From NCBI GenBank assembly GCA_964384235.1, contig CAYLJX010000003.1, positions 72,389-136,388 on the forward strand: 64,000 nt of DNA, given 5' to 3'. The translations under genes and the position numbers were made by a program. Positions 11,806 to 62,160 of this stretch are shown here, piece by piece (within the stretch, counting starts at the first letter, position 1; each line of letters opens with the position of its first letter). This stretch comes from an uncultured Bdellovibrionales bacterium. GTDB taxonomy: Bacteria > Patescibacteriota > Minisyncoccia > Moranbacterales > UBA1568. Under the pieces are notes generated by a model. The model searched no databases. It saw nothing but the letters and a program-made list of their open reading frames with translations, and was not told the origin of the DNA.

Positions 11806-11889
11806 TCCGCCACAAAGGCGGATCTATGAAAATCTGCGAGATTGAATGTGAGGATTTAAAATTCTGAGTGCAGTTCGAGGAAGAGTCGA

Positions 11890-11960
11890 GGAGTGAAGTA
11901 AGCCGTACTGATGCAAGTACGGCGTCGAGCACCGGAAACTCTGACAAAGAAATGCGCCAG
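11890..11960. repeat. Intergenic repeat family C, copy 1 (hairpin GCCGTAC-tgatgcaa-GTACGGC followed by GTCGAGCACCGGAA...ACAAAGAAATG)
   Basis: A second copy at 30345-30414 is about 85% identical; both lie just 3' of minus-strand genes. Confidence 0.7.
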
Positions 11961-21425: not shown

Positions 21426-21490
21426 ATTGCTAAAAGAATTTTTTTCGCACAAAAAAACTCCCGTAACAGGGAGTTTTTGTTTCAAGTCTT

Positions 21491-21596
21491 GGATTTCCGC
21501 CCTGTAGCCGACGAAGCGCTGAAAAATCAGTACTTCATACATTTCAGCCAAAAAAGGCTAGGAGGGATGCCTTTCTTCGCCCTGGGACGGAAATCC
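21491..21596. ncRNA. Candidate small structured RNA between the pth and rplY terminators (orientation unknown)
   Basis: A ~13-bp terminal helix (ggatttccgccctg / ctgggacggaaatcc) encloses two internal hairpins (gctgaaa/tttcagc and aaaggc/gccttt); terminators flank both sides and there is no ORF. Confidence 0.3.
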
Positions 21597-21702
21597 AAAA
21601 CCTGAATTTCAAAGAAGTTCCAGTATAGCAAAAAATCTGATTCTTGTCAAGAGACAAAAGAAAACCCCGACTTTCATCGGGGTCTGGAATCTTTGAGAAA
21701 TA

Positions 21703-25553: not shown

Positions 25554-25672
25554 AAAAGACTCTTCTTTTTCTCAAGCCTCCATACCCTATTTTAGCCTTT
25601 TTTCAGAAAAAGAGCAACCTAAAAAAGTAGCCAATTTATGCTTTGAATGAGAGAAAAATCGTAAGGACAGAT

Positions 25673-25795
25673 CTCCTTTTTCGGAGTCTTGAAGATCCGA
25701 AAGCGGGCATGGTTCCGCCGAAGAGGCGGAGAGCGAAGGAGCTTCAGGAGTGAGGTTGCACGCCGGGCAACCGAGCGACTCCGAAAAGGGAGGCT
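25673..25795. ncRNA. Structured RNA element E, copy 1 (~120 nt)
   Basis: Terminal helix ccuuuuucggaguc / gacuccgaaaaggg plus internal stems CCGCC/GGCGG, GAAG/CUUC and GGUUGC/GCAACC; copy 2 at 49926-50047 carries compensatory stem changes. Confidence 0.5.
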
Positions 25796-25904
25796 GGCCG
25801 GCGATATGAACTACCCGTCCGTATCCGAGAACCGTACGGCGAGGAAAGAGAAACAAAGAGCGGAAAGGAAAAGAAAAACCGGCATTCAAAGCCGGTTTTT
25901 CTCA

Positions 25905-26462
25905 TTAGGCTCGAGAGACGTACGTGCCTTTTTCGGTGTTGATGATGAGGCTGTCTCCGGTCTTGATGAAGAGAGGCGTCGTCACCTGGAGACCAGTTTC
26001 GAGCGTCACCACCTTGTCCCCGCCCGAGGCCGTGTCGCCCTTGATGCCGGGAGGCGCATCGGTCACCTTGAGCGTCACCTTGACTGGGATCTCGACGTTG
26101 ATCGGCTGGCCATCGAAGTTGAGCACGGTCACTTCCGTCCCCTCGACGAGGTAGTCAGCGATATGGCCGAGCACGTTCTTGGAAAGCGAGAACTGGTCGT
26201 AGTCTTCCTGATCCATGAACTGATAGTCATCGCCCTCATGGTAGAGGTACTGGGCTTGGGATTTGACGATCTCCGTCTCCTCGACCTTGTCGGCCCCTTG
26301 GAACGTGTGGTCGATGATACCGCCCGTGAGGAGGTTCTTGAGCTTGGTCCGAAGCACCGCGCCGGCCCGCCCCATCTTGGAATGCTGGTAGTCCATGACG
26401 AGGTACGGCTCGCCGTTAAAAAGGATGCGCTTGCCGGTTTTTATTTCAGTGAGAGTCAACAT
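25905..26462 (-). CDS. efp: Elongation factor P
   Basis: MLTLTEIKTGKRILFNGEPYLVMDYQHSKMGRAGAVLRTKLKNL. Confidence 0.95.
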   Translation of the reverse strand: MLTLTEIKTGKRILFNGEPYLVMDYQHSKMGRAGAVLRTKLKNLLTGGIIDHTFQGADKVEETEIVKSQAQYLYHEGDDYQFMDQEDYDQFSLSKNVLGHIADYLVEGTEVTVLNFDGQPINVEIPVKVTLKVTDAPPGIKGDTASGGDKVVTLETGLQVTTPLFIKTGDSLIINTEKGTYVSRA

Positions 26463-26660: not shown

Positions 26661-26730
26661 AGGTTATATGAATGAGGAATTAGGAATAATGAGTTACGTG
26701 GCTATGACTTTTGTCTTTTGGATGAGATGC

Positions 26731-26815
26731 GAGGAAACGCCGAGCACCGAACCGAGGCGTATAGGGAAATACGGCGAGGGAGGCGCGGAGGCGATTGACA
26801 AAGCAGCTCGCCAAA
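26731..26815. repeat. Structured repeat element D, copy 1 (ssb-rpsR spacer)
   Basis: GACGCCGAGCACCGAACCGAG..hairpin..GAGGGAGG..GCGCC AAAAA; about 75% identical to copy 2 with compensatory hairpin changes (CGUAU/AUACG versus ACGUAC/GUACGU). Confidence 0.55.
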
Positions 26816-26830
26816 AACGAAAGTCAGAGC

Positions 26831-27328: not shown

Positions 27329-27382
27329 AACACTTGGTGAGATAAAGGTTGATTAAGAAAAATTTCATTTTTTGGATGCTAT

Positions 27383-27472
27383 CCGAGGAGACGCCGAGCA
27401 CCGAACCGAGACGTACACATCGGTACGTTGAGGGAGGAGCGCAGGCAGTCGACAAAGGAGAGCGCCAAAAAA
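27383..27472. repeat. Structured repeat element D, copy 2 (rpsF-ssb spacer)
   Basis: See copy 1; on the + strand it contains TCGACA-N17-ATAAAT. Confidence 0.55.
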
Positions 27473-27479
27473 TAAATTT

Positions 27480-28182: not shown

Positions 28183-29400
28183 CTATTGCACACCGAGTCC
28201 CATCGGTGCGGCAGGCGGAGTGGTATCCCCGCCTCCACCGCTTGATGCAATAGTGATGGCGGTGCCGTTCGTGTTGCAGCTGTTGTTGTCGTCGCAGACG
28301 TACAGGTAGGCCGTGGATCCGTCGGAGAACGTTCCGGCATTCACGGTCGCGGTGATGCTCCCCGTACTCCAGACGGTCGGCTTCTGGTATTCACGCACCG
28401 TCGAGGCGGCATACGTGCTCGCGTTCCCCAACACGACACGGTTGAGACCATAGCTCAGGTAGACGTCGGCGAAGTAGCGGCGGTTGTTCGTACTGCGGGT
28501 ACGCGCATAGCCGCCGGCCGAGTCGACGACCAAACCGCCCTGTACTCCGCCGGCCAACACCGCCGTGATACCGACATAGGAATGATCGTACTGCTCCTGA
28601 TTGCGTGCCAGACTGCCGTCATTGACAAGGTCGAACCAGCCCGTCACATCGGAGTCGTCCCAGCGTGCCATGAACTCCTGCTTGATCCAGGCCTGCGTCG
28701 GGTACAGCTCGCAGCCAGACTCCCAGCAATAGATGAAGGGACCGTTGCCGTTGTTGTCCGGCCAGTCCATCGCCCGCGCACCGCAGCCGTATGGCGGTCC
28801 CGGAGTGATCTCGTCCGCATAACCATGCTGTCCCACGCCGGTGGTCGCCGAATCCCAAACCGTGCTCCCATAGCTCGTATAGAACGTGCAGCCTGAGAAG
28901 GGGGACGGTCCTGCCGTAAAAAGGTAGGTCTTAAAGTTGTTGTCGTCCCCGAACACCCAGTTCGGATGCACCCGATAGTAGAACGACATGAGCGTATAGA
29001 ATGGGTACCCGCTCGGGGTGGGTCTGTTCTTATCGATATTCACCCCGTTCGACGGGTTATCGGTATTGAGATGGACCCCGGTCAGATACTTGGTAATCCG
29101 GGGATGCGGCATCGCCACGCCGCCCACCCCTGTCGAATACGCCATATCATACGGGGCGCCGAGAGCCGTCGGACCGTACGAAGTCCACGGGGAGGACGCC
29201 AGACTCGAATACTGACCCTGATCGAACGCCACGGGAATGGCATTGGCACCGACCCCAAACCCCGAACCGCTTACCGTCACTGATCCGCCGTGCGACCAGG
29301 TACCACTCGTATTGCTAATACTCGGCGCAGCAGAAACTATGGACGGAAAAAGAACTACGGCAATGGTCAGGATGAACAGAAATGGGAGCGAATGTTTCAT
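28183..29400 (-). CDS. Secreted jelly-roll (ConA/LamG-like?) protein, paralog 1
   Basis: Signal peptide MKHSLPFLFILTIAVVLFPSIVSA; ends ...SSGGGGDTTPPAAPMGLGVQ*; related to the downstream paralog. Confidence 0.65.
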   Translation of the reverse strand: MKHSLPFLFILTIAVVLFPSIVSAAPSISNTSGTWSHGGSVTVSGSGFGVGANAIPVAFDQGQYSSLASSPWTSYGPTALGAPYDMAYSTGVGGVAMPHPRITKYLTGVHLNTDNPSNGVNIDKNRPTPSGYPFYTLMSFYYRVHPNWVFGDDNNFKTYLFTAGPSPFSGCTFYTSYGSTVWDSATTGVGQHGYADEITPGPPYGCGARAMDWPDNNGNGPFIYCWESGCELYPTQAWIKQEFMARWDDSDVTGWFDLVNDGSLARNQEQYDHSYVGITAVLAGGVQGGLVVDSAGGYARTRSTNNRRYFADVYLSYGLNRVVLGNASTYAASTVREYQKPTVWSTGSITATVNAGTFSDGSTAYLYVCDDNNSCNTNGTAITIASSGGGGDTTPPAAPMGLGVQ

Positions 29401-29404
29401 ACCG

Positions 29405-30271
29405 TCATTGTACACTAAGCCCCGTCGGCGCGGCAGGCGGAATAGTATCAGACCCGCCCTGCGTCATCGTACCGGCTGACAGAGAACCGGCACCACCTGT
29501 TCCGGTATCCGTATAGATCTCAAAGTCGTCCCAATACAGGTAGTTGACTGCATCGTGAGCACAGCAGCCTTCCGATGCACTCCAGTTCGATCCCATTAAA
29601 AACGTCGTCCAACTGGGCGTATATGAGTAAAAACCGGACTGCGTCAGGGTATAACCAGTAACCTCTTTCTGAAGAACGTCGTCTTCCCAGAGGCGGATAA
29701 TCCCATTGGAGGCATGTTCATATATGTAGACTTCTATTTTATGCCAAGCACGGTCTCCGGCGTGAGAAATATCTCCCCAATAAGTTCCCAGCCATACTTC
29801 ACTGCTCGTGTTATATCCGGAAAACGCCCCTGTAATAGCCCCGTCTATGGGGTTGTTGTCGACCTGCAGATCAAGAAAAGTGGCTGAGTTTCCGAATCTG
29901 GCAATCTTCGGTCCTGTGCCTCCGTTCAGGCTTGCGTCGCGACGAATCCAAAAGCGGTACATGACCTCATTCGTATAAGACGCCATATCATTGAGTACCA
30001 TTGCGGTCTGGGTTCCAACTCCTGCCGAATTACCATCGCTTTCCCAGTTGCAGCGCGCCATATAGCTTCCGGAACGAGTCCCGGCCAATCCATCCGCGGC
30101 CGTCGTGACTGCGGAGCACTTCTCGTTTGGCGCATCCTGCGACCAGAGATTCGTGTTCCCCGATTCCCAGCCGTCATAGAACACCCGGCCGGCAGCGGAA
30201 GCGTCACTCGCGACAAGAAAACCGATGACAAGCGACAGGAGAAATTGCACTGAGAACAAGGATCGAGTCAT
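29405..30271 (-). CDS. Secreted jelly-roll (ConA/LamG-like?) protein, paralog 2
   Basis: Signal peptide ..LLSLVIGFLVASDASA; ends ...GGSDTIPPAAPTGLSVQ*. Confidence 0.65.
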   Translation of the reverse strand: MTRSLFSVQFLLSLVIGFLVASDASAAGRVFYDGWESGNTNLWSQDAPNEKCSAVTTAADGLAGTRSGSYMARCNWESDGNSAGVGTQTAMVLNDMASYTNEVMYRFWIRRDASLNGGTGPKIARFGNSATFLDLQVDNNPIDGAITGAFSGYNTSSEVWLGTYWGDISHAGDRAWHKIEVYIYEHASNGIIRLWEDDVLQKEVTGYTLTQSGFYSYTPSWTTFLMGSNWSASEGCCAHDAVNYLYWDDFEIYTDTGTGGAGSLSAGTMTQGGSDTIPPAAPTGLSVQ

Positions 30272-30344
30272 ATTAAAACTTCATTCTCCCTACAATTATA
30301 TACAGGACGTACGTCTTTGAGCACAGTTTGAGGCGCAAGCAAGG

Positions 30345-30414
30345 AGCGGAGTAAGCCGTACTGATGCAAGTACGGCGTCAAGCACCGGAGCTTGTAACAA
30401 AGAAATGTGCCAAA
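30345..30414. repeat. Intergenic repeat family C, copy 2
   Basis: gagtaagccgtactgatgcaagtacggcgtcaagcaccggag...acaaagaaatgtgcca. Confidence 0.65.
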
Positions 30415-49887: not shown

Positions 49888-49925
49888 AAAAGCTACGAAC
49901 CTTTCCTTTCGAACGGAAGGCAAAG

Positions 49926-50047
49926 ATCCCTTTTCGGAGTCTTGAAGATCCGGAAGCGGGCATGGTTCCGACTGACAAGGAGGAGAGCGAAGGAGCTTCA
50001 GGAGGGAGCCCGTACGCCGGACGGGCGAGCGACTCCGAAAAGGGAGG
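49926..50047. ncRNA. Structured RNA element E, copy 2
   Basis: ~85% identical to copy 1, with GGUUGC/GCAACC replaced by GCCCGU/ACGGGC (both pair). Confidence 0.5.
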
Positions 50048-50142
50048 CTTTGCCGGGAGAGAGAATAAAGCACTAGAAAACTTTTCGTAAAAAACAAACG
50101 CCCGGAAGAAGACTTCTCTTCCGAGCGATACAACAGTGCGAC

Positions 50143-50655
50143 TCACTTGAAATGCAGCATGAACCGACCAGCGGGGATCTCCAACGTTTGTACCAGACTG
50201 CGGCGAAACCGACGCTTATCGATACACTGCTCCGGCACCGGTTGACCGTCGATGACGCCGTGAGGACAAGACTCGTCGGGTCTGATCTCCTCGCCGTTTA
50301 TACGATAGTCGATATCGCCTACCCGCGTAACGGTGACGCTTTCAGGAGACAACGTCGCCACGACGATTGAAGCCGATAGCCGCGCTTCCGGATACGCCTC
50401 GAACACCTGTTCGGCACCGGCCTCAAGAAACCACAGGTTGACACGCCTCGTGATCACATCCACCAGCACCTTCCCGGCAAGATGCGAGCTGAAAAGAAAA
50501 ACTCCTTGGATGACTTCAGCCAGATCCTTGCCGCTGACCCTCCCCCGTACGGAAGTGACATTTTTTGGCCACGCCTTCGGATCAGTCGTTTCGATGGCGA
50601 CAATCACCCCCGGCCACGCGGTGACCGAAAACTCTTTCTTCCGTCTTCCTGCCAT
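50143..50655 (-). CDS. Hypothetical protein with weak PP2C-phosphatase-like similarity (short)
   Basis: ..SASIVVATLSPESVTVTRVGDIDYRI.. resembles the PP2C TAVVALI..VANVGDSRA block; the N-terminal PP2C motifs are absent. Confidence 0.35.
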   Translation of the reverse strand: MAGRRKKEFSVTAWPGVIVAIETTDPKAWPKNVTSVRGRVSGKDLAEVIQGVFLFSSHLAGKVLVDVITRRVNLWFLEAGAEQVFEAYPEARLSASIVVATLSPESVTVTRVGDIDYRINGEEIRPDESCPHGVIDGQPVPEQCIDKRRFRRSLVQTLEIPAGRFMLHFK

Positions 50656-50767
50656 AGCCCCTCCTAAAAGGTTATCAGATTGTTCAAGAACGTTGCTGAC
50701 CCCTTCTCAGAGGACTTGTTATCCTAGCATCAGAACATGGTTTTGTCACTCCTATAGGGAGCAAAAA

Positions 50768-50805
50768 AAACAGAAGGGTCACGGGTGCAGAATCGCACCG
50801 GTGAC
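50768..50805 (-). terminator. Terminator of gene 50837..51238
   Basis: 13-bp palindrome gggtcacgggtgc-agaatc-gcaccggtgaccc followed by a U8 run on the minus strand. Confidence 0.7.
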
Positions 50806-50836
50806 CCTCGGATACGGAAGAGCCGCTGAAAGCGCC

Positions 50837-51238
50837 TCATAGCACCTCTCCGTCAAAGTGATACTTGATATGTTTCGCTCCGATGTCCGCGGCGAACTCC
50901 CGGATTTTCGTACGAAGCTTCTCGTAGGCTTCGGCGGGTACCGATCTCCCCACCTTCACCTGAAGCTCGTCAAAAACAGGCAACCAGACCGCGAAGAGCT
51001 CATCGGACTCGAAGTACGGCAAAGGAACGAACCACAGAAACTTCTTTTCCTCGGCCACGAACCAGTGCTCGCCCTCCGGATCCTCTGGATCACCGTTTCT
51101 CCAATATTCCGCCGTGAGCCTCCTCTTGAAATACGAACCAAGGATCTCGGCGACAGCCCGATTGAAACGGGCAAGTGTTTGATACATTTCTACTGCCCCG
51201 CCTTCGGGATCGGAAACCTGAATACTGGACATGACCAC
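50837..51238 (-). CDS. Hypothetical protein (133 aa), first gene of the accessory island
   Basis: Protein-like ORF with its own strong terminator. Confidence 0.5.
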   Translation of the reverse strand: MVMSSIQVSDPEGGAVEMYQTLARFNRAVAEILGSYFKRRLTAEYWRNGDPEDPEGEHWFVAEEKKFLWFVPLPYFESDELFAVWLPVFDELQVKVGRSVPAEAYEKLRTKIREFAADIGAKHIKYHFDGEVL

Positions 51239-51451
51239 CTCCTCACTCTTTTGTTGAAAAAACTTCCCCCATCCCCTGACGCTGCAGAAGACTCTCCATC
51301 CTATACCAGAAACGCTTTTTTGTCACGTCATAACAACAAAAGACCTGAAAAACCAGGTCTTTTCTTTAGAGCTCTTTCAGCCACCACGTTCGCACCTGGT
51401 TCGAATCCCGCGATCCCGAATTCATGGAGGTCATTCGCCAGATCCGGACGA

Positions 51452-51640
51452 TCAAAGCCATGGTGGAGGAGGCGGCTCATAGGGAGGCTCTCCCGGTTTC
51501 GGCGCTTTGTGAGACAAGAGCCAGAAGAGGTTCAGGAGCTCGAGGTACCGGCCCTTCGCCTCGGCGAAAGAAAGCACTTCGTCATAGTCCGCTTCCATTC
51601 TCGCACGGAAGCGGTCGATTGTCTCATCGGTGATCTGCAT
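51452..51640 (-). CDS. Small hypothetical protein (62 aa) with a Pro-rich tail
   Basis: Helical composition; no Shine-Dalgarno sequence seen. Confidence 0.25.
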   Translation of the reverse strand: MQITDETIDRFRARMEADYDEVLSFAEAKGRYLELLNLFWLLSHKAPKPGEPPYEPPPPPWL

Positions 51641-51830
51641 GCAACCAGAGTGCCATGCGCTGCAAACTCAGTCATGACGGGGGAATGTGCCAAGTCCGCA
51701 CACTCAGTAACCGGTGGTCCATAACGCCCTCGCAGCACCCTACATAAAGAGCGATTGGGCGGTCCGTACCGAACCAAACGTCGAACTTTCTAGGCGTGAG
51801 CCAGCGAAACTGGCCTGAGGCACTCATTCG

Positions 51831-52610
51831 TCAAGTCTTGGGGTATTCCGCATTGCACTCTTGCCGCAGGCGAGCACGTTCCGTGTCTTGGACCGGCCGC
51901 TCAATAGTGCTTCGAAGCGTCGCACGCATCCATGCACCCGGACCGAAGAGCTGTGATGGACTGGAACAGGAAATCGGAAGGCGCACACCTCGTACGACGC
52001 CGTCCTCGGCTATGAACTGGAGATCGCCAAGCTGGCCACGGCTTTCTTCTACGTTAAGAACCTCCGGTCGACCAACTATGACATAGCCGGGAGGAGCATC
52101 AAAAGCCACCACGTCTGATTGCGAGTGCCCCCCTCCACCTACGCCTGCTCCCTCGCATCTCACTTGGTTTCGAACCTCTTGTGTCTTGCGATCTTGAAAA
52201 CGAGCTACGGAGCCAGCAAGGCACTCTGCGATCTTGGCGTTTCGGTGTTCAGCAGCGTGCTGAGCCTCTTTTGCAGCGTCGAAGACTGCGTAGCCAAGGA
52301 CACATACGCCACCGAAGATGAGCACGAAGGCACCCATCTTCACGCCCCAGTGCTCTTTGCCAAAGAAGAGCCATGCCAGGAGACCGACTATGCATGCCAG
52401 CAGTGCCAAGACCCCAAGGGGTGTTTTGATCGCTGCTTCGAAGACTCTCGGGAACTGCTCAACAAGTGTTTGCAACATCCATTCCTCCCGATATCGAACT
52501 CGATCGATGACGTTCTGGTGCGCATCGCGAAATGTTTCCAATCGTGGCAATGTGCCGCCTAGGCGCGACTCGCTTCCCACGACAGAGCGCATAGCCAGCG
52601 ATTGCGACAC
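51831..52610 (-). CDS. Hypothetical 2-TM membrane protein downstream of SGNH-like paralog 1
   Basis: ..LGVLALLACIVGLLAWLFFGKEHWGVKMGAFVLIFGGVCVLGYAVF.. TM hairpin. Confidence 0.4.
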   Translation of the reverse strand: MSQSLAMRSVVGSESRLGGTLPRLETFRDAHQNVIDRVRYREEWMLQTLVEQFPRVFEAAIKTPLGVLALLACIVGLLAWLFFGKEHWGVKMGAFVLIFGGVCVLGYAVFDAAKEAQHAAEHRNAKIAECLAGSVARFQDRKTQEVRNQVRCEGAGVGGGGHSQSDVVAFDAPPGYVIVGRPEVLNVEESRGQLGDLQFIAEDGVVRGVRLPISCSSPSQLFGPGAWMRATLRSTIERPVQDTERARLRQECNAEYPKT

Positions 52611-52679
52611 TCATCCCGACCTCACAAGGAAGCATCGGTGCAGTGCGCCACGCGATCACTGATCTGTTTGGGCGACGTC

Positions 52680-53489
52680 TCACACTGCGATCGCGAGTTC
52701 CTTCAAGGTGTCGATCCAGCGTTCATTCACGATCCGCTGGAATCCCTCTCTCGTTGGGTGGAGCTCGTTGTCCCAGTCTTCGAGGTAGTTCGGGGAAACA
52801 AGACATCCGCGTGAATTGACCAAGTAGATTCGTTTGCCCGGATCCGCAAACTGCGAAAACTCCTCGGCGAGGCGGTCGATGAGGATGCGACAGATCTTCC
52901 GGCGGAGATCGGGGTCGTTCGGAACCTGTCGTTCGTCCATGGCCGGAGCGAGCCACGGCCCCGTTATCTTCAACGTCTCAAGTTTGAAGCCCCGTCCATC
53001 CGGGATGGGATAGTCGTAGGAGTGGAGGATGACGGCCGGGTGAAGCCCCTGTTTTCCGGCGGCACGCCAGACTTGATGGGTCATGGCGCCAAGGGCGGTA
53101 CCCAGTCGTCCCATCAGGGCATCCATCGCCGCCTCCTCGATACAGTCTTCCGGCGTTTGCGCTTTGGAGCAATTCCTTTTCAGCCCAAGCCCGTAATCGA
53201 CCGCATCGTTTCCTGCACCACCGATTCGGACAAACGAATAGTAGGGCATGTTCTCTGGTCGCAGTTCCCAAGCGAACTGTTTCGCGTACCTGCCGAAGAC
53301 GTACTCCTCCAGCTTGGCGCCGATGTACCCGAGCGACTGGATCTGACGATACGGATCCTGGACGCGCGGATGGGTCGCAATCGCGTAGAGGAGGTTGCTC
53401 TTCGGATACCAGAACCAGGAGTCTCCGATTGCCAGAAGTGCGGGAAATTCGCCGGGAAGCCACTGCTCGCCGGGCGCATAGATTTTCAT
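52680..53489 (-). CDS. GDSW-motif SGNH-hydrolase-like protein, paralog 1
   Basis: LLAIGDSWFWY (block I Ser), GGAGND (block III), WDNELHP (block V His); paralogous to 62572..63420. Confidence 0.65.
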   Translation of the reverse strand: MKIYAPGEQWLPGEFPALLAIGDSWFWYPKSNLLYAIATHPRVQDPYRQIQSLGYIGAKLEEYVFGRYAKQFAWELRPENMPYYSFVRIGGAGNDAVDYGLGLKRNCSKAQTPEDCIEEAAMDALMGRLGTALGAMTHQVWRAAGKQGLHPAVILHSYDYPIPDGRGFKLETLKITGPWLAPAMDERQVPNDPDLRRKICRILIDRLAEEFSQFADPGKRIYLVNSRGCLVSPNYLEDWDNELHPTREGFQRIVNERWIDTLKELAIAV

Positions 53490-57174: not shown

Positions 57175-57311
57175 GGCAATGGTCTCCTTCTAGAGTAAAG
57201 AACCAATTCCATCGTCATGCATGCGGCATCTCTCGCGTAGGCTTGGAAACGTGCCAAGCTGACACGTTCTCCCGTCTCCGCCCAGGAGCGTCTCTCCCCT
57301 ACCGTGGGAAG

Positions 57312-58505
57312 ATGGACTTCTCTCACGATATCGCGCTCTTCGCCCGGACCAATGCCAGGCGAAGCTTCCAGCCCTTCGGCCTCCGTCAGGCCGACCGCCT
57401 GTTTCACCTGTATGCCATAGGGAAGACGGGAACGGGCAAGTCGACCCTCCTCGAGACGCTCGCCCTTCAGGACATGCGCGCGGGCCGCGGATTGGCCGTC
57501 ATCGATCCCCATGGCGACTTGGTGCTACGCCTCAAGAAGGCGATGCCGCCCTCGCGCCGAGACGATCTGCTTTTCTTCGACGTCCCGGATGTCTCCCAAG
57601 CCTTCGGCTACAACCCGCTGCGCAAGGTGCGGCCCGACAAGATTCCCCTGGCCGCCTCGGGACTCCTGGAGGCCTTCAAGAAGCTCTGGACGGATGCCTG
57701 GGGCGTACGCATGGAGCATGTCCTGCGCAATGCTCTCTTCGCGCTCCTCGAATACGGAGAGGCGACCCTTCCGGACATCCTTCGCCTCATGACGGACAAC
57801 GCCTTCCGATACCGCGTGTCAGCGACGCTCACCAACGAACAGGTGAAGGCCTTCTGGCAGAACGAGTTCCCCAAGTACCACCCTCGCTACCGCCAGGAGA
57901 GCATCGCTCCCATCCAGAACAAGGTCGGCGCCTTCCTGGCCGATCCCAGGCTCTACCGGATCTTCACGGCTCCTCCCGTCGATCTGCGTTTCCGCAGAGT
58001 CATGGACGAGGGGAAGATCCTCCTCGTCAATCTCTCCAAGGGACAACTCGGCGAAGACAGCGCCTCGCTCCTCGGGGCTCTCCTCGTCACGACGCTCTCC
58101 TTGGCGGCCTTCTCCCGGGCGGATATGCCGGAAGCGGAGCGGAAGCCTTTCTTCATCTTCGTCGACGAATTTCAGTCGTTCACGACCCTTTCGGTGGCCG
58201 GGATGATCTCGGAATTGCGTAAGTACAACGTGGGGCTCGTCCTCGCCAACCAGCACCTCCACCAGCTCGAGCCCGATGTCCGGCACGCGGTCCTGGGGAA
58301 CGTGGGAACGCTCGTCGTCTTCCGGGTCGGCCCTGAGGATGCCCGCTTCCTCGCCCATGAGTTCGAGGGAAGCTTCTCGCCCTTCGACCTCATGAGCCTC
58401 GCCAACCATGACATCTACCTTCGCCTCATAATCGACGGGACTCCCAGCCCGCCCTTCAGCGCGACCACCATCAAGCCAGATGATCTTGATCGCTTGAGGA
58501 TGTGA
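57312..58505 (+). CDS. TrwB/TraD (type IV coupling protein)-like P-loop ATPase of the FtsK-HerA superfamily, soluble form
   Basis: Walker A YAIGKTGTGKSTLLETL followed by VIDPHGD (compare TrwB GATGTGKSVLL...VIVDPNGD); Walker B FFIFVDEFQSF; ..VGLVLANQHLHQL.. sensor; no N-terminal TMs. Confidence 0.75.
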   Translation: MDFSHDIALFARTNARRSFQPFGLRQADRLFHLYAIGKTGTGKSTLLETLALQDMRAGRGLAVIDPHGDLVLRLKKAMPPSRRDDLLFFDVPDVSQAFGYNPLRKVRPDKIPLAASGLLEAFKKLWTDAWGVRMEHVLRNALFALLEYGEATLPDILRLMTDNAFRYRVSATLTNEQVKAFWQNEFPKYHPRYRQESIAPIQNKVGAFLADPRLYRIFTAPPVDLRFRRVMDEGKILLVNLSKGQLGEDSASLLGALLVTTLSLAAFSRADMPEAERKPFFIFVDEFQSFTTLSVAGMISELRKYNVGLVLANQHLHQLEPDVRHAVLGNVGTLVVFRVGPEDARFLAHEFEGSFSPFDLMSLANHDIYLRLIIDGTPSPPFSATTIKPDDLDRLRM

Positions 58506-58551
58506 GGCGCATACTCTCATGCGCTTTCCATAGGTTTCAGAGGGGGGGGAC

Positions 58552-59064
58552 ATGGGACACGCCAAGCCGACGGAGATCTTGTCGCACTGGAACACCCGCG
58601 TCGACGGCATGCAGCAGTCGTCCCACGAGTTTTACGGAGCGGTCGAACGCACCCTCGATACGCATAGTCTCAAGGACTACAAGACAGAGCGCGTGAACAT
58701 CTCGGAAGGCGGCATCTTCTCCTCGAAGCGCGAGTACCTCCAGGTGCGCCGCGCCGACATCGTCTTCCACATCTGCGCTGCGCCGTATGGCAACGGCTTC
58801 TTCCTCTCCTGGTGGCTCGGACGGATCGAGTCGGGCTTCTGGGCCTGGATCTCCGACATTCCGGTGATCGGCATGCTCGCGCAGAATTTCTTGAAACCCC
58901 TCACCTACTACAAGCTCGACACCGCCGCGATGTTCCAAGGCGTGGTCCATTCCGTCGTCCTCGAAGTCCTCGACGGCCTGACGACGGAGAAGGGCATCCG
59001 GGCGCTGGCTGAGAGCGAACGGAGGCCCGTCATGCGCGACTTCTTCGCCCGCCTCGGAGGCTAA
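58552..59064 (+). CDS. Hypothetical protein (170 aa) between the two ATPases
   Basis: Protein-like ORF with one Trp-rich hydrophobic segment. Confidence 0.45.
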   Translation: MGHAKPTEILSHWNTRVDGMQQSSHEFYGAVERTLDTHSLKDYKTERVNISEGGIFSSKREYLQVRRADIVFHICAAPYGNGFFLSWWLGRIESGFWAWISDIPVIGMLAQNFLKPLTYYKLDTAAMFQGVVHSVVLEVLDGLTTEKGIRALAESERRPVMRDFFARLGG

Positions 59065-59079
59065 CGCCGGTCTCCGAGC

Positions 59080-62000
59080 ATGTCCGGCCTCTCGCCTGCG
59101 GAAATCATCACCACGAGCTTCTATGCGTGGGAGGTACGCGGGCGCGGGTGGCAGGTAGCGGACTATCCCGTCTGCCTTGAGCCGCCGTTTCGGCATTGCT
59201 TCGTCCTGCCCGATCTCGTCGCGGAAACGAAGCCGATCGATGACGGAAAACGGCCGACGTTCCTCAGTTCCGTGGTCGAGGGCCTGCGGAGCGCCTTCGC
59301 GCTCGACGCCACCCCTGCGCCCGAGCCCGCCCCACCGTACGAGGAACCAGCCCCCTATCCGGCACTTGCGTCCGGACCGCTCACCGCGTTTTGCGTGACG
59401 GTGCCGATGGATCACAAGAGCCATCCGGAAACGACAATCCGCCTTCTCGTCGCGCTGTCGACCTGCTGCTTCCCCGTGTCCCTCGAACTCATCGGCTGCG
59501 AAGGCCAGGTCATCATCCAACTGGTCTGCGCCGACACCGACCAGGCGCATGTGGCCGCGCAGTGCCTCGCCTACCTTCCCGACGCTGCGGTCATCGAAAC
59601 CGAGGACCTCCTTGCGAGCGTCTGGGATCGACGGCGGGAGCACGCCGTCGTCGATTTCGGGCTCTCTCAGGAATTCTTTCTGCCGTTTGATGGACTGAAG
59701 AGCCAGAAGCTCGACCCGTACCTCTCCCTTGTTCCCTCCCTCGCCAGGGCGGATCGAGACGAGGCGATCCTCCTACAGGTCCTCTTCCAAGGCGTCCAGA
59801 ATCCGTGGGGCAAGGCTATCCGCGACGCCCTCGATGATGGCCAGGGCGGTTCTGTGTTCGCGGACGCCCCAGCATTTCCCCGGCTGGCCGATGAGAAGCT
59901 GAAGACCTCCCTCTTTGCCGTCTCGGTCCGTGTCGCCGCACAGGCACAGGAGGCGGAACGAGCGTGGCACTTGGCCCGTTCGACCGGCGCCTTTTTCCTC
60001 CAATTGGGCCGACCCGGAGCCAATGAACTCCTCCCGCTTGAGAACGACGGCTACCGAGAGGATCTTCATGTCGAAGCCATCCTCACGCGGCAGTCGTACC
60101 GCCTTGGGATGATCCTCTCGGCCGACGAGTTGGCGGCGCTCGCCCATCTTCCCGATGCCGCGGTCCGTCATCCGTCCCTCACGCGGGAGGAGCGGCGGAC
60201 GAAGCCTCTTCCCGTCGAAGCCTCCGGACATCCCCATGTCCTCGGCGAAAACCAGCACCGCGGGAAGATGTCCGTCGCGTCGCTCAGTGATGGGCAGCGG
60301 CTCCAGCACACCTGGATAGTCGGCGCCTCCGGGACGGGAAAGTCGACGCTTCTCCTGAACCTCATCACTGAGGACATTCGGCTCGGTCATGGTGTCGCGG
60401 TGCTGGATCCGCACGGCGACCTGATCGACGACATCTTGGCGCGGGTGCCAGACAGCCGCACGAGCGATGTCATCGTCTTCGACCCGAGCGATACTGAGTG
60501 GCCCATCGGATTCAATATCTTCTCAGCCGGAAGCGAGGGCGAGCGGGCGCTCTTGGCTGCCGATCTCGTCGGGATCTTCCGGCGGTTCTCGACATCTTGG
60601 GGCGACACCATGAGCGCGGTGCTCGGGAACGCGGTCCTCGCGATCCTCGAGCACCCGCAGGGTGGGACGCTGCTCGACCTCAGGCGGCTCCTCGTCGATG
60701 AGCGCTTCCGCCGCGCGTACCTGGAGGACGTGGCGGACGAGGAGGTCGCCTTCTTCTGGTCGCGCGAGTACCCCGTGATCGGCTCACGTTCGATCGGCCC
60801 GATCCTGACCCGGCTTGACACCTTCCTGCGGCCCAAGGTCATTCGGCATATCGTCGGACAGCCGGATGGGAAGCTCCATTTCTCCGACGTCATGGCGTCG
60901 AAGCGCATCTTTCTCGCGAAGCTCTCCCATGGCCTCATCGGCGAGGAGAATGCCTACCTCCTCGGCAGCCTCATCGTGGGAAAGTTTCTCGGACTCGCGC
61001 TCGCGCGGCAGCAGCTCGCGAAGGATGAACGCGCCGCCTTCTTCCTGTATGCCGACGAGTTTCAGCACTTCCTCACGCCCTCCATGGAAACGCTGCTCAC
61101 GGCGGCGCGAAAGTACGCGCTTGGGGCAACGCTCGCCCATCAGACGATGGCGCAGCTCCGGGACTCGCCCAAGGTGGAAGGCGCGCTTCTCGGCAACGCC
61201 TACACGCGCATCGTCTTCCGAACCGGGGAAAGCGATGCGCGGCAGCTGGCCGAGGGGTTTTCCTTCTTTGAGGGGCGCGACATCCACGGTCTGGGACGGG
61301 GCGAGGCGATCGCCCGGCTCGGATCGAGCGGAAATGACTTCAACCTGAAAACGCTGCCGCTCCCCGGCGTGCCGCCTGGGGCGGAGGAGCGGCGCTCCCA
61401 GATCATCTTCCGCTCGCGCGAGCGCTACGGGACGCCGATCGAAGCGCTGCGGGCGCTCCTCGGGGCACGGTACAGAGCAAGCGAGGAACCGGCCGAAGCG
61501 AAGCCGAGGCCGCCGCTCGAGGAGGCACCGCCCGCGCTCTCGGGTGCGGGAGAGCCGATCGCCGCTTCCTGTGAGACACCACGGGCAAGCGTTCCGGAAC
61601 CAAAGACCGGTGAGCAACTGATGGCGCGCCGGGTACCGATCAATGTCGCAGCGGTCACCCCGGGACGGGGCGGGCAGGAGCACAAATACCTCCAGCACCT
61701 CGTGAAACGCTTGGCCGAAGAGCGCGGTTTCCGCGCCACGATTGAAGAGGCCGCGGGAGATGGCCGGGCAGACGTGGTACTGAGCAAGAGTACGCAGCGA
61801 ATCGCCTGCGAGATCTCAGTGACGACGGACCATATCCACGAGGAAGAGAACTTGAGGAAGTGCCTCGCGGCCGGATTCGAACAGATCGTCTTTGTCGTAC
61901 CCGACCGGAAACGAAGGGAGAAACTGAAAGGACATTTTCAGGAGATTGCCGGAATCGACTCGTTGGCGGTGATATCGACGGAGGAGATCGTCGCGTACCT

Positions 62001-62160
62001 CGACGGGCTGGATACCGGATCGGCCGTGGCCGAATCGACCGTGCGAGGCTACAAGGTGAAAGTCACGCGGCAGACGGTCTCGCCAGAGGAGCTGGCCGGA
62101 AGGCGCTCGGCCATCGCCGAGGTGATCGCCCGGTCGCTCCTCAAACACAAGGACGTTTGA
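59080..62160 (+). CDS. Large TrwB/HerA-like ATPase fused to an unknown N-terminal domain and a C-terminal Hjc/restriction-endonuclease-like (PD-(D/E)xK fold) domain
   Basis: Walker A WIVGASGTGKSTLLLNL..VLDPHGD, Walker B FFLYADEFQHF, paralogous to 57312..58505; the C-terminus ..LVKRLAEERGFRATIE..GDGRADVVL..RIACEISVT resembles the Hjc ..KGFAVVR..PDIIA..IEVKS pattern. Confidence 0.75.
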   Translation: MSGLSPAEIITTSFYAWEVRGRGWQVADYPVCLEPPFRHCFVLPDLVAETKPIDDGKRPTFLSSVVEGLRSAFALDATPAPEPAPPYEEPAPYPALASGPLTAFCVTVPMDHKSHPETTIRLLVALSTCCFPVSLELIGCEGQVIIQLVCADTDQAHVAAQCLAYLPDAAVIETEDLLASVWDRRREHAVVDFGLSQEFFLPFDGLKSQKLDPYLSLVPSLARADRDEAILLQVLFQGVQNPWGKAIRDALDDGQGGSVFADAPAFPRLADEKLKTSLFAVSVRVAAQAQEAERAWHLARSTGAFFLQLGRPGANELLPLENDGYREDLHVEAILTRQSYRLGMILSADELAALAHLPDAAVRHPSLTREERRTKPLPVEASGHPHVLGENQHRGKMSVASLSDGQRLQHTWIVGASGTGKSTLLLNLITEDIRLGHGVAVLDPHGDLIDDILARVPDSRTSDVIVFDPSDTEWPIGFNIFSAGSEGERALLAADLVGIFRRFSTSWGDTMSAVLGNAVLAILEHPQGGTLLDLRRLLVDERFRRAYLEDVADEEVAFFWSREYPVIGSRSIGPILTRLDTFLRPKVIRHIVGQPDGKLHFSDVMASKRIFLAKLSHGLIGEENAYLLGSLIVGKFLGLALARQQLAKDERAAFFLYADEFQHFLTPSMETLLTAARKYALGATLAHQTMAQLRDSPKVEGALLGNAYTRIVFRTGESDARQLAEGFSFFEGRDIHGLGRGEAIARLGSSGNDFNLKTLPLPGVPPGAEERRSQIIFRSRERYGTPIEALRALLGARYRASEEPAEAKPRPPLEEAPPALSGAGEPIAASCETPRASVPEPKTGEQLMARRVPINVAAVTPGRGGQEHKYLQHLVKRLAEERGFRATIEEAAGDGRADVVLSKSTQRIACEISVTTDHIHEEENLRKCLAAGFEQIVFVVPDRKRREKLKGHFQEIAGIDSLAVISTEEIVAYLDGLDTGSAVAESTVRGYKVKVTRQTVSPEELAGRRSAIAEVIARSLLKHKDV

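Follow-up and report, generated by a model that had tools for sequence, protein, structure and literature searches.

The question raised by this locus is what a pair of similar, structured sequences is doing between the genes of a bacterium. CPR/Patescibacteria genomes are about 1 Mb in size and are usually described as streamlined and repeat-poor, and to our knowledge almost nothing is known of their non-coding RNAs. Here we focus on a 64,000-nt stretch of DNA (the window), whose host is a Candidatus Moranbacteria bacterium of the CPR according to its EF-P and its gene order. The sequence in question, element E, represents a structured non-coding repeat family that is real and had not been catalogued before. 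The repeats are about 135-150 nt long; at least three copies were observed, and we infer that there are more. The window itself is ordinary housekeeping DNA. Pfam identifies fusA, comEC, nrdR, ftsA, hisS, lepB, a LytR-family gene, gyrB, efp and ssb, together with an amidase, RadC and ATPases like type IV coupling proteins. The genes pth, rplY, rpsR, rpsF, recA, ftsK and rpoC were placed by the gene order common to annotated relatives, and rpoB by its size and position.

A first-pass annotation had described two copies of about 120 nt with about 85% identity. Pairwise alignment, a repeat scan and hand segmentation, in which each base pair of both copies was checked, find the two copies where they had been placed, with the similarity beginning a few bases beyond the limits first given. 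The size had been underestimated, because an outer helix, P0, enlarges the element to about 135 nt. Between the ends of the inner terminal helix, P1, 16 of 119 positions differ, which corresponds to about 87% identity and agrees with the earlier figure. The longest exact stretch common to copies 1 and 2 is 24 nt at most. A core of about 95 nt, all junctions and loops included, is the same in both save for one base in the small GA/GG loop of P2 (A/G) and one in J2/3 (U/G). Copy 2 is unchanged in sequence in an independent assembly (L021), and a 3' tail, GGAGAGAGAA, follows both it and a third copy that lies on another contig. Element E is known from these three sequences, one of them partial.

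Both copies fold on the plus strand into the outer helix P0 (6-7 bp), the 15-bp helix P1 and a three-way junction. From the outside in, the order is P0, a small internal loop, P1, UUGAAGA, the P2 arm, G(U/G)GA, P3, GAGC and the return strands of P1 and P0 (Table 1). The terminal helix proposed in the first-pass annotation is real and amounts to the 15 bp of P1, UCCUUUUUCGGAGUC / GACUCCGAAAAGGGA, in which the pair 25677/25788 changes from U.G in copy 1 to C-G in copy 2. Within the P2 arm lie an internal loop that does not vary, GGGCAUGG / AGCGAAGGA, and a tip that does, P2b, rebuilt by 5 of the 16 differences between the copies; in copy 2 it consists of six standard pairs and a tandem G.A/A.G. 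The shared GAAG-GAG-CUUC that had been singled out within this arm is present but is one of two or three mutually exclusive local pairings, and because the P2 region is invariant no single inner pairing can be chosen. The P3 stems are just as first described, with four of the six pairs changed on both sides and all of them able to pair. These double changes make up 8 of the 16 differences and keep Watson-Crick pairing. The P3 loop is conserved as claimed but is 7 nt long: the G/A that had been counted as its last position is the first base of the 3' arm and covaries with C/U. P0 also differs and yet pairs, being GGACAG/CUGGCC in copy 1 and GGCAAAG/CUUUGCC in copy 2. P0, the P2b tip and P3 thus vary between the copies in sequence and length while pairing is kept. 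Two further ideas about the fold were dropped. A pseudoknot of the ACGCCGG loop with the 3' flank would use a CCGGCG that is there in copy 1 and not in copies 2 and 3, and the idea that P0 is the stem of an older terminator hairpin that element E had entered is not supported, copies 2 and 3 having the same P0 and tail.

Table 1. Positions, strands and defining details of element E, its segments and the neighbouring signals in the window.
Feature	Position	Strand	Details
Copy 1, whole unit (P0 to P0)	25665..25799	+	covariance model R1 score 170 bits
Copy 1, P0 5' arm	25665..25670	+	GGACAG; pairs with 25794-25799 (CUGGCC); one A x G mismatch; present in MFE fold
Copy 1, P1 5' arm	25674..25688	+	15 bp with 25777-25791
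J1/2	25689..25695	+	UUGAAGA; unchanged between copies
Copy 1, P2 arm	25696..25749	+	UCC-GA-AAGC / GCUU-CA-GGA
Copy 1, P2b tip	25713-25731	+	7 bp; loop GAAGA
Copy 1, P3 hairpin	25754..25772	+	GGUUGC / GCAACC; invariant loop ACGCCGG at 25760-25766
J3/1	25773..25776	+	GAGC; invariant
Copy 1, return strands	25777..25799	+	P1 3' arm 25777-25791, GG bulge, P0 3' arm 25794-25799
Copy 2, whole unit (P0 to P0)	49919..50054	+	R1 score 175 bits; P0 GGCAAAG/CUUUGCC, 7 bp, perfect
Copy 2, P2b tip	49966..49985	+	UUCC-GA-CU / AG-GA-GGAG; loop GACA
Copy 2, P3 hairpin	50008..50026	+	GCCCGU / ACGGGC; loop ACGCCGG at 50014-50020
3' tail of copy 2	50055..50066	+	GGGAGAGAGAAU; common to copy 3 (UGGAGAGAGAAG); absent from copy 1
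Promoter of small membrane-protein gene	25584..25612	-	TTGCTC-N17-TAAAAT; read from sequence
efp intrinsic terminator	25871..25903	-	72 nt from 3' end of copy 1; A-run and T-run on opposite sides
Intrinsic terminator of 170-aa gene	50099..50127	-	45 nt from 3' end of copy 2; no + strand T-run

The folding energies are -68.1 kcal/mol for copy 1 and -70.2 kcal/mol for copy 2, with z-scores against dinucleotide shuffles of -4.5 and -6.1, respectively. With the copies aligned to the common fold, 98.5% of cells are paired as long as the partners stay in register; sliding them by 1-3 columns lowers this to 59% or less. A shuffle test of the covariation is weak with only two full sequences, and the observed value was reached in 39 of 500 shuffles. 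Both the folding energies and the imperfect pairs point to the plus strand. On the complement the energies are -54.2 and -61.6 kcal/mol, an advantage of 9-14 kcal/mol for the plus strand. Read on the opposite strand, the U.G in P1 of copy 1 and the one at the base of P2b in both full copies turn into A x C, and the tandem G.A of copy 2 becomes pyrimidine mismatches; the P2b hairpin of copy 2 is worth -6.3 kcal/mol on the plus strand and -1.6 on the complement. The partial copy 3 is ambiguous as to the folding strand. Selection would therefore appear to act on the single-stranded fold of the plus strand, as RNA or, less likely, as ssDNA; for a dispersed repeat, no constraint other than this would be visible. 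What had been proposed at the outset, a non-coding multi-stem structure with compensatory changes in several copies, holds, now with at least three copies.

Could the similarity instead be that of a conserved domain of a true protein-coding gene, or of a short peptide gene? Open reading frames (ORFs) of 90-109 aa do span both copies on the minus strand, and a very basic 33-aa ORF (MNYPSVSENRTARKEKQRAERKRKTGIQSRFFSL, 25806-25907, plus strand) starts 11 nt past a GGAGG at the 3' end of copy 1. The overlapping ORFs had already been taken to do no more than translate the repeat, and they are indeed artefacts of translation: a 1-nt indel in P2b shifts the reading frame, so that the two copies lie in different frames, and homologous proteins were not found. 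The 100-aa overlapping ORF matched nothing among 5.8 billion proteins, not even itself. This search was meant also to catch spuriously called ORFs on other copies, and since no protein matches the ORF, itself included, no gene caller had called it. The 33-aa ORF, which extends into the efp terminator and has no counterpart in copies 2 and 3, is probably fortuitous. A coding origin is thus extremely improbable and is rejected as far as the tools used allow.

Among known RNAs, element E found no place either. Rfam 15, with 4227 models that include riboswitches, ribozymes, 5S, SRP, 6S, Y RNA-like, HEARO and IS605-associated RNAs, gave no match in the whole window at the gathering score. At E <= 10, in the two regions, nothing matched the plus strand of copy 1 or copy 2; the overlaps consisted of the neighbouring terminators and a 13.8-bit chance match on the minus strand. 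The comparison with Rfam, which the first-pass annotation had proposed as a check, thus yields no catalogued family that fits. The riboswitch-like role that it had thought conceivable finds no footing, because downstream of copies 1 and 2 there is no gene in the same orientation. What comes next is, in each case, a terminator and the 3' end of a convergent gene, and copy 3 is set apart from its neighbour, a DUF4349 gene, by that gene's own promoter, TTGCTT-N17-TAGAAT. For the same reason a cis-regulatory leader was rejected, copy 3 lying upstream of the DUF4349 promoter and outside its UTR. A riboswitch conserved across taxa was dismissed as well, with no true matches in GTDB representatives or JGI metagenomes and with sister loci that do not carry the element. 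A retron msr-msd does not agree with the neighbours (efp, the small membrane protein, the LTD/PKD protein, the 170-aa protein and DUF4349), none of which is a reverse transcriptase.

The fold nonetheless has the look of certain ribozymes. As in the multi-copy hammerhead and twister ribozymes, a three-way junction is closed by a helix formed from the ends, the junction core is invariant, the stems covary, and many copies occur without a fixed gene. Element E might accordingly be a complex-folded catalytic or ligand-binding RNA, a new class of self-cleaving ribozyme or an orphan aptamer carried on a repeat, whose active site would be built from the invariant junction nucleotides, with variation confined to the helices. 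Some 45 unpaired nucleotides do not vary among the copies, whereas three helices have been rebuilt. The fold is highly stable, and a multi-copy, gene-independent distribution is typical of small ribozymes. However, the hammerhead core CUGAUGA / GAA / H is not matched by the junction strands, which read UUGAAGA / G(U/G)GA / GAGC, and a hammerhead was rejected on this ground and for want of an Rfam hammerhead match. Nor does element E match any Rfam ribozyme model: those for hammerhead, twister, twister-sister, pistol, hatchet and HDV-like ribozymes, and those for aptamers, gave nothing at E <= 10. The invariance may also reflect recent copying, since P1 and P2 are invariant too, and because no homologues were found in other taxa the conservation cannot be calibrated. 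In its riboswitch form the proposal again lacks a downstream gene. We consider a catalytic or ligand-binding RNA improbable.

The history of the family is better seen from related assemblies. The exact sequences of window proteins led to contigs of this species in about a dozen further samples. Copy 3 sits on another contig of the same species, adjoining DUF4349, which brings the total to three, spread over two contigs; the DUF4349 gene is recorded on a separate contig of up to 183 kb, in a collection with NCBI assemblies among its contents. The copy is seen from P2b to its 3' end on a contig (L041) from one of the two ENA assemblies that also hold the hybrid scaffolds described below, and it lies just upstream of the DUF4349 promoter, which is a perfect example of the lineage type. 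Its P3 is of the copy 1 type, its P2b is distinct again, and its P0 and tail are of the copy 2 type (3' strand of P1 and P0, GACUCCGAAAAGGAAGACUUUGCC; tail, UGGAGAGAGAAG). Since copy 3 mixes the P3 of copy 1 with the P0 and tail of copy 2, the family is a mosaic of modules. Two ENA scaffolds follow copy 1 up to window base 25789 and then continue into a different flank toward the DUF4349 gene, so that copy 1 supplies the body and copy 3 the tail. This hybrid junction at 25789 was seen in L033, L034 and L039 (ERZ28615168 scaffold_6349; ERZ15185866 NODE_15006) and unites the gyrB/small-gene side of copy 1 with the DUF4349 side of copy 3. Its P0/P1 pairing is poorer than that of copy 1 in the window, and it is either a chimera that the repeat gave rise to or a true product of recombination between copies. 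DUF4349 also has a hairpin followed by a T-run that lies after its -10 box and ahead of its start codon (L038 ~60-100; L046 ~800-835). This hairpin is kept, with stem changes, in a species without element E, and may serve as an attenuator or terminate the atp operon.

Another kind of evidence comes from where short-read assemblies break. Logan contigs are short-read assemblies of public sequencing runs, built with what we take to be k = 31. Those from independent runs stop at fixed bases inside copy 2 (at 49959, 3/3, and at 50020, 3/3), inside copy 1 (at 25697, 2/2) and at one identical base of copy 3 (6/6). Since exact matches between copies 1 and 2 do not exceed 24 nt, the breaks would reflect further copies, closer to each of the known ones. 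One observation does not fully fit the k-mer reasoning: on the right side of copy 1 the contig ends scatter over 12 nt (25763-25775). In practical terms, element E repeatedly breaks or mis-joins metagenomic assemblies of its host organism.

Outside this species the picture is quite different. The gene order rpsF-ssb-rpsR-efp-small gene-gyrB is found in the window and in four sister species with 82-86% EF-P identity (L002, L004, L013 and L047). In these four, the gap between efp and the small gene measures 142-166 nt and holds no element, as compared with 366 nt in the window. In L046, with 72% DUF4349 identity, the atpC-DUF4349 gap is 74 nt and again holds none. In sister species with 72-86% identity of the flanking proteins, two of the three sites are thus short and empty. 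Searches further afield gave no additional members. A pattern for the 5' half found nothing in GTDB representatives (185,579 species), JGI metagenomes or IMG/VR; a relaxed three-block version gave five matches in GTDB, all by chance and in unrelated taxa, and a pattern for the 3' half gave nine matches in JGI metagenomes, again all by chance. Three more blocks found nothing in IMG/VR, and neither did blastn in collections of phages and plasmids. Applied to each batch of relatives' loci, nhmmer returned the known copies and truncated ends only, as did model R1 on the window and ten loci. An 11.8-bit R1 match in L004 was set aside as a different RNA, downstream of pth. A search of the literature on structured RNAs or MITEs in CPR/Patescibacteria gave nothing relevant. 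So far, the family is known from one species-level Moranbacteria lineage.

The places that the copies occupy bear on how they might be transcribed. Copy 1 lies between two minus-strand genes, one for a 128-aa membrane protein (followed by gyrB) on one side and efp on the other. Copy 2 lies 31 nt past the stop codon of a co-oriented gene for an LTD/PKD surface protein and faces a convergent gene of 170 aa. No co-oriented ORF was found after either, and the orientation of element E with respect to neighbouring genes is inconsistent. The possibility that the genes flanking the copies are paralogous was rejected, the 128-aa protein beside copy 1 and the 131-aa protein beside copy 2 being unrelated. 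A usable terminator for the plus strand is found at copy 1 only: the efp terminator is bordered by an A-run and, on its far side, by a T-run and could therefore act in both directions. Neither a promoter scan nor inspection by eye revealed a sigma-70-type promoter beside any copy on either strand. The neighbouring genes carry clear promoters of the form TTGCTT-N17-TAnAAT, and the counterparts of the small membrane-protein gene promoter in sister species read TTGCTT-N17-TATACT, TAGAAT or TACAAT. The unknown genes beside copy 2 have no match in Pfam, PHROGs or NCBIfam. They belong to a run of minus-strand genes (50143-53489) that stops at copy 2 and has been conserved in other contigs from this species. 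In this run the 269-, 215-, 131- and 170-aa genes are without a match in Pfam, PHROGs and NCBIfam, and the 62- and 50-aa genes are without a recorded Pfam match.

The main rival to a dispersed repeat is that the copies are sibling trans-acting small RNAs, each its own gene. The ACGCCGG loop, UUGAAGA, GGGCAUGG, AGCGAAGGA and several AGGAG-like runs would then serve as seeds or bind proteins, leaving the stems free to covary. In this respect element E resembles Qrr1-5, LhrC1-5 and the csRNAs, which also occur as several paralogues of about 100-150 nt per genome, with conserved single-stranded motifs, variable stems and a narrow taxonomic range. The G.U pairs of both full copies and the tandem G.A of copy 2 all fall on one strand, the better-folding one, and the loops are invariant while the stems vary. 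Copy 1 has genes of the opposite strand on both sides and would therefore need transcription of its own; the hairpin with A and T runs 72 nt downstream could end such a transcript, since it might terminate both ways. The same genome holds other small structured RNAs with covariation, and lineage-specific gain of sRNA genes is common. However, Qrr, LhrC and csRNA genes have clear promoters and Rho-independent terminators, whereas element E has neither consistently. A promoter is absent upstream of every copy even though TTGCTT-N17-TAnAAT is easily seen at the neighbours, and copy 2 is without a plus-strand terminator. The fold, with its 22-bp closing helix and multi-loop core, is far more elaborate than those of the sibling sRNAs. 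P1 and P2 (22 bp) are invariant as well while P3 is replaced, which fits the recent spread of subfamilies better than a long divergence, and the assembly breaks point to near-identical extra copies. We consider sibling small RNAs less likely than the repeat, yet the strongest of its rivals.

We return to the dispersed repeat. The copies sit at unlinked loci, and for a dispersed sequence that is absent from the sister sites a mobile or selfish repeat is at least as likely as a housekeeping ncRNA. Like a MITE, element E has terminal inverted repeats, P1 (15 bp) and P0 (6-7 bp), formed from its own ends, and three dispersed copies with empty sites in relatives at two of them. No direct repeat is visible at the borders of the copies, which are not sharp, and the empty sites are too diverged for a base-by-base alignment. 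The window holds no transposase, integrase or reverse transcriptase in its 64 kb. Elsewhere in it, two large ATPases like TrwB/type IV coupling proteins (57243-62160, plus strand) adjoin RadC and may form with it a DNA-uptake or conjugation-like module, of a kind common in CPR genomes.

If the element does move, the folded strand could be read as DNA. Element E would then be recognised as folded ssDNA in the manner of an IS200/IS605 PATE, a REPIN or attC, and be moved by a trans-acting HUH or tyrosine enzyme encoded elsewhere in the genome. Its presence varies between species, its copies are mosaic, and enzymes that recognise ssDNA need just such a structure on one strand; DNA, too, tolerates G.T and tandem G.A pairs. 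Yet tnpA, tnpB, RAYT and integron integrase genes are all missing from the 64-kb window, and no Rfam match to IS605-associated RNAs was found. The ends pair with each other around a three-way junction, whereas PATEs and REPINs have a separate hairpin at each end or form one long hairpin. Unlike attC, the element has no R''/R' boxes (GTTRRRY). Recognition as ssDNA is thus unlikely.

The closest relatives in kind are ERIC, the Correia/NEMIS elements of Neisseria and the pneumococcal RUP and BOX repeats. Element E is alike in its size of about 100-150 nt, in ends that pair into a long imperfect palindrome and in its intergenic dispersal in either orientation to the flanking genes. It also shares with them a very similar core with mosaic subfamilies, an occupancy of sites that varies among related genomes and the lack of coding capacity. 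Where such repeats act at all, they do so as RNA structures on read-through transcripts. The likeness does not extend to the sequence itself, where no similarity exists. The interior of element E is a three-way junction with invariant loops and compensatory stems, in contrast to the simple long hairpin of the ERIC type. No target-site duplication was found, whereas that of Correia is TA, and the host differs as well in having a reduced CPR genome.

Taken together, our leading reading, held tentatively and at somewhat less than even confidence, is that element E is a structured intergenic repeat, ERIC/MITE-like and restricted to its lineage, which has spread recently and acts as RNA. It rests on the unlinked recent insertions, narrow range, near-identical core, mosaic subfamilies, mixed orientation and lack of a promoter. 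Several findings pull the other way. There is no definable target-site duplication, the ends are blurred, and the tail is found in copies 2 and 3 only. No enzyme for mobility lies in the 64-kb window, and copy 1 has no co-oriented upstream gene from which its plus strand could be transcribed. The invariant junctions and loops with covarying stems resemble a complex functional RNA more than a typical MITE, and just three sequences are available, one of them partial. As to mechanism, because there is no recognisable promoter of its own, the element may be transcribed by read-through from neighbouring genes. The 22-bp closing helix and the three-way junction would then act on the host transcript as a module for 3'-end protection, processing or termination. 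A 3'-end/processing module of this sort, built around the closing helix and acting on read-through transcripts, is the mechanism that we favour, with the same reserve. Candidates for the means of spread are trans-mobilisation, as for a MITE, and recombination between copies.

A bolder possibility would place element E in a new class of complex-folded RNAs, as a ribozyme that cleaves or mobilises itself or as a scaffold that recruits proteins, multiplying in a reduced CPR genome. We think this improbable. If it were true, the invariant 45-nt core of junctions and loops would be the functional site, and the swappable P0, P2b and P3 would mark subfamilies or specificity. In a CPR bacterium the element would in any case be an active selfish element or a newly evolved regulator, either of which would be a rarity in the group.

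Element E is not the only structured sequence here. A separate structured RNA, about 115 nt long, follows directly on pth and the pth terminator (21487-21600, plus strand) and is found in the same place in three Moranbacteria species (also L004 15003-14872 and L002 about 14575-14460, both on the minus strand). It has a long closing helix, two hairpins, an invariant strand (UUCAUACAUUUCA) and an invariant loop (UAGGAGGGAU). Across the three sequences 15 pairs show compensatory changes, and Rfam has no match to it; it looks like a genuine, conserved, unannotated ncRNA. A two-copy structured repeat at 11865-11959 and 30318-30412 (plus strand; 95 nt, 81% identical) belongs to a different family from element E and has an invariant hairpin, GCCGUACUGAUGCAAGUACGGC, and a consensus fold with eight pairs changed on both sides. 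Since the window holds at least two more unannotated, covarying structured RNAs, this lineage may be promising ground in the search for new RNA families. Direct repeats of 114 nt with 76% identity (26709-26822 and 27363-27476) lie in the intergenic spacers around ssb in the rpsF-ssb-rpsR cluster, and the repeat scan found a further pair of 43 nt with 81% identity at 28185-28227 and 29407-29449.
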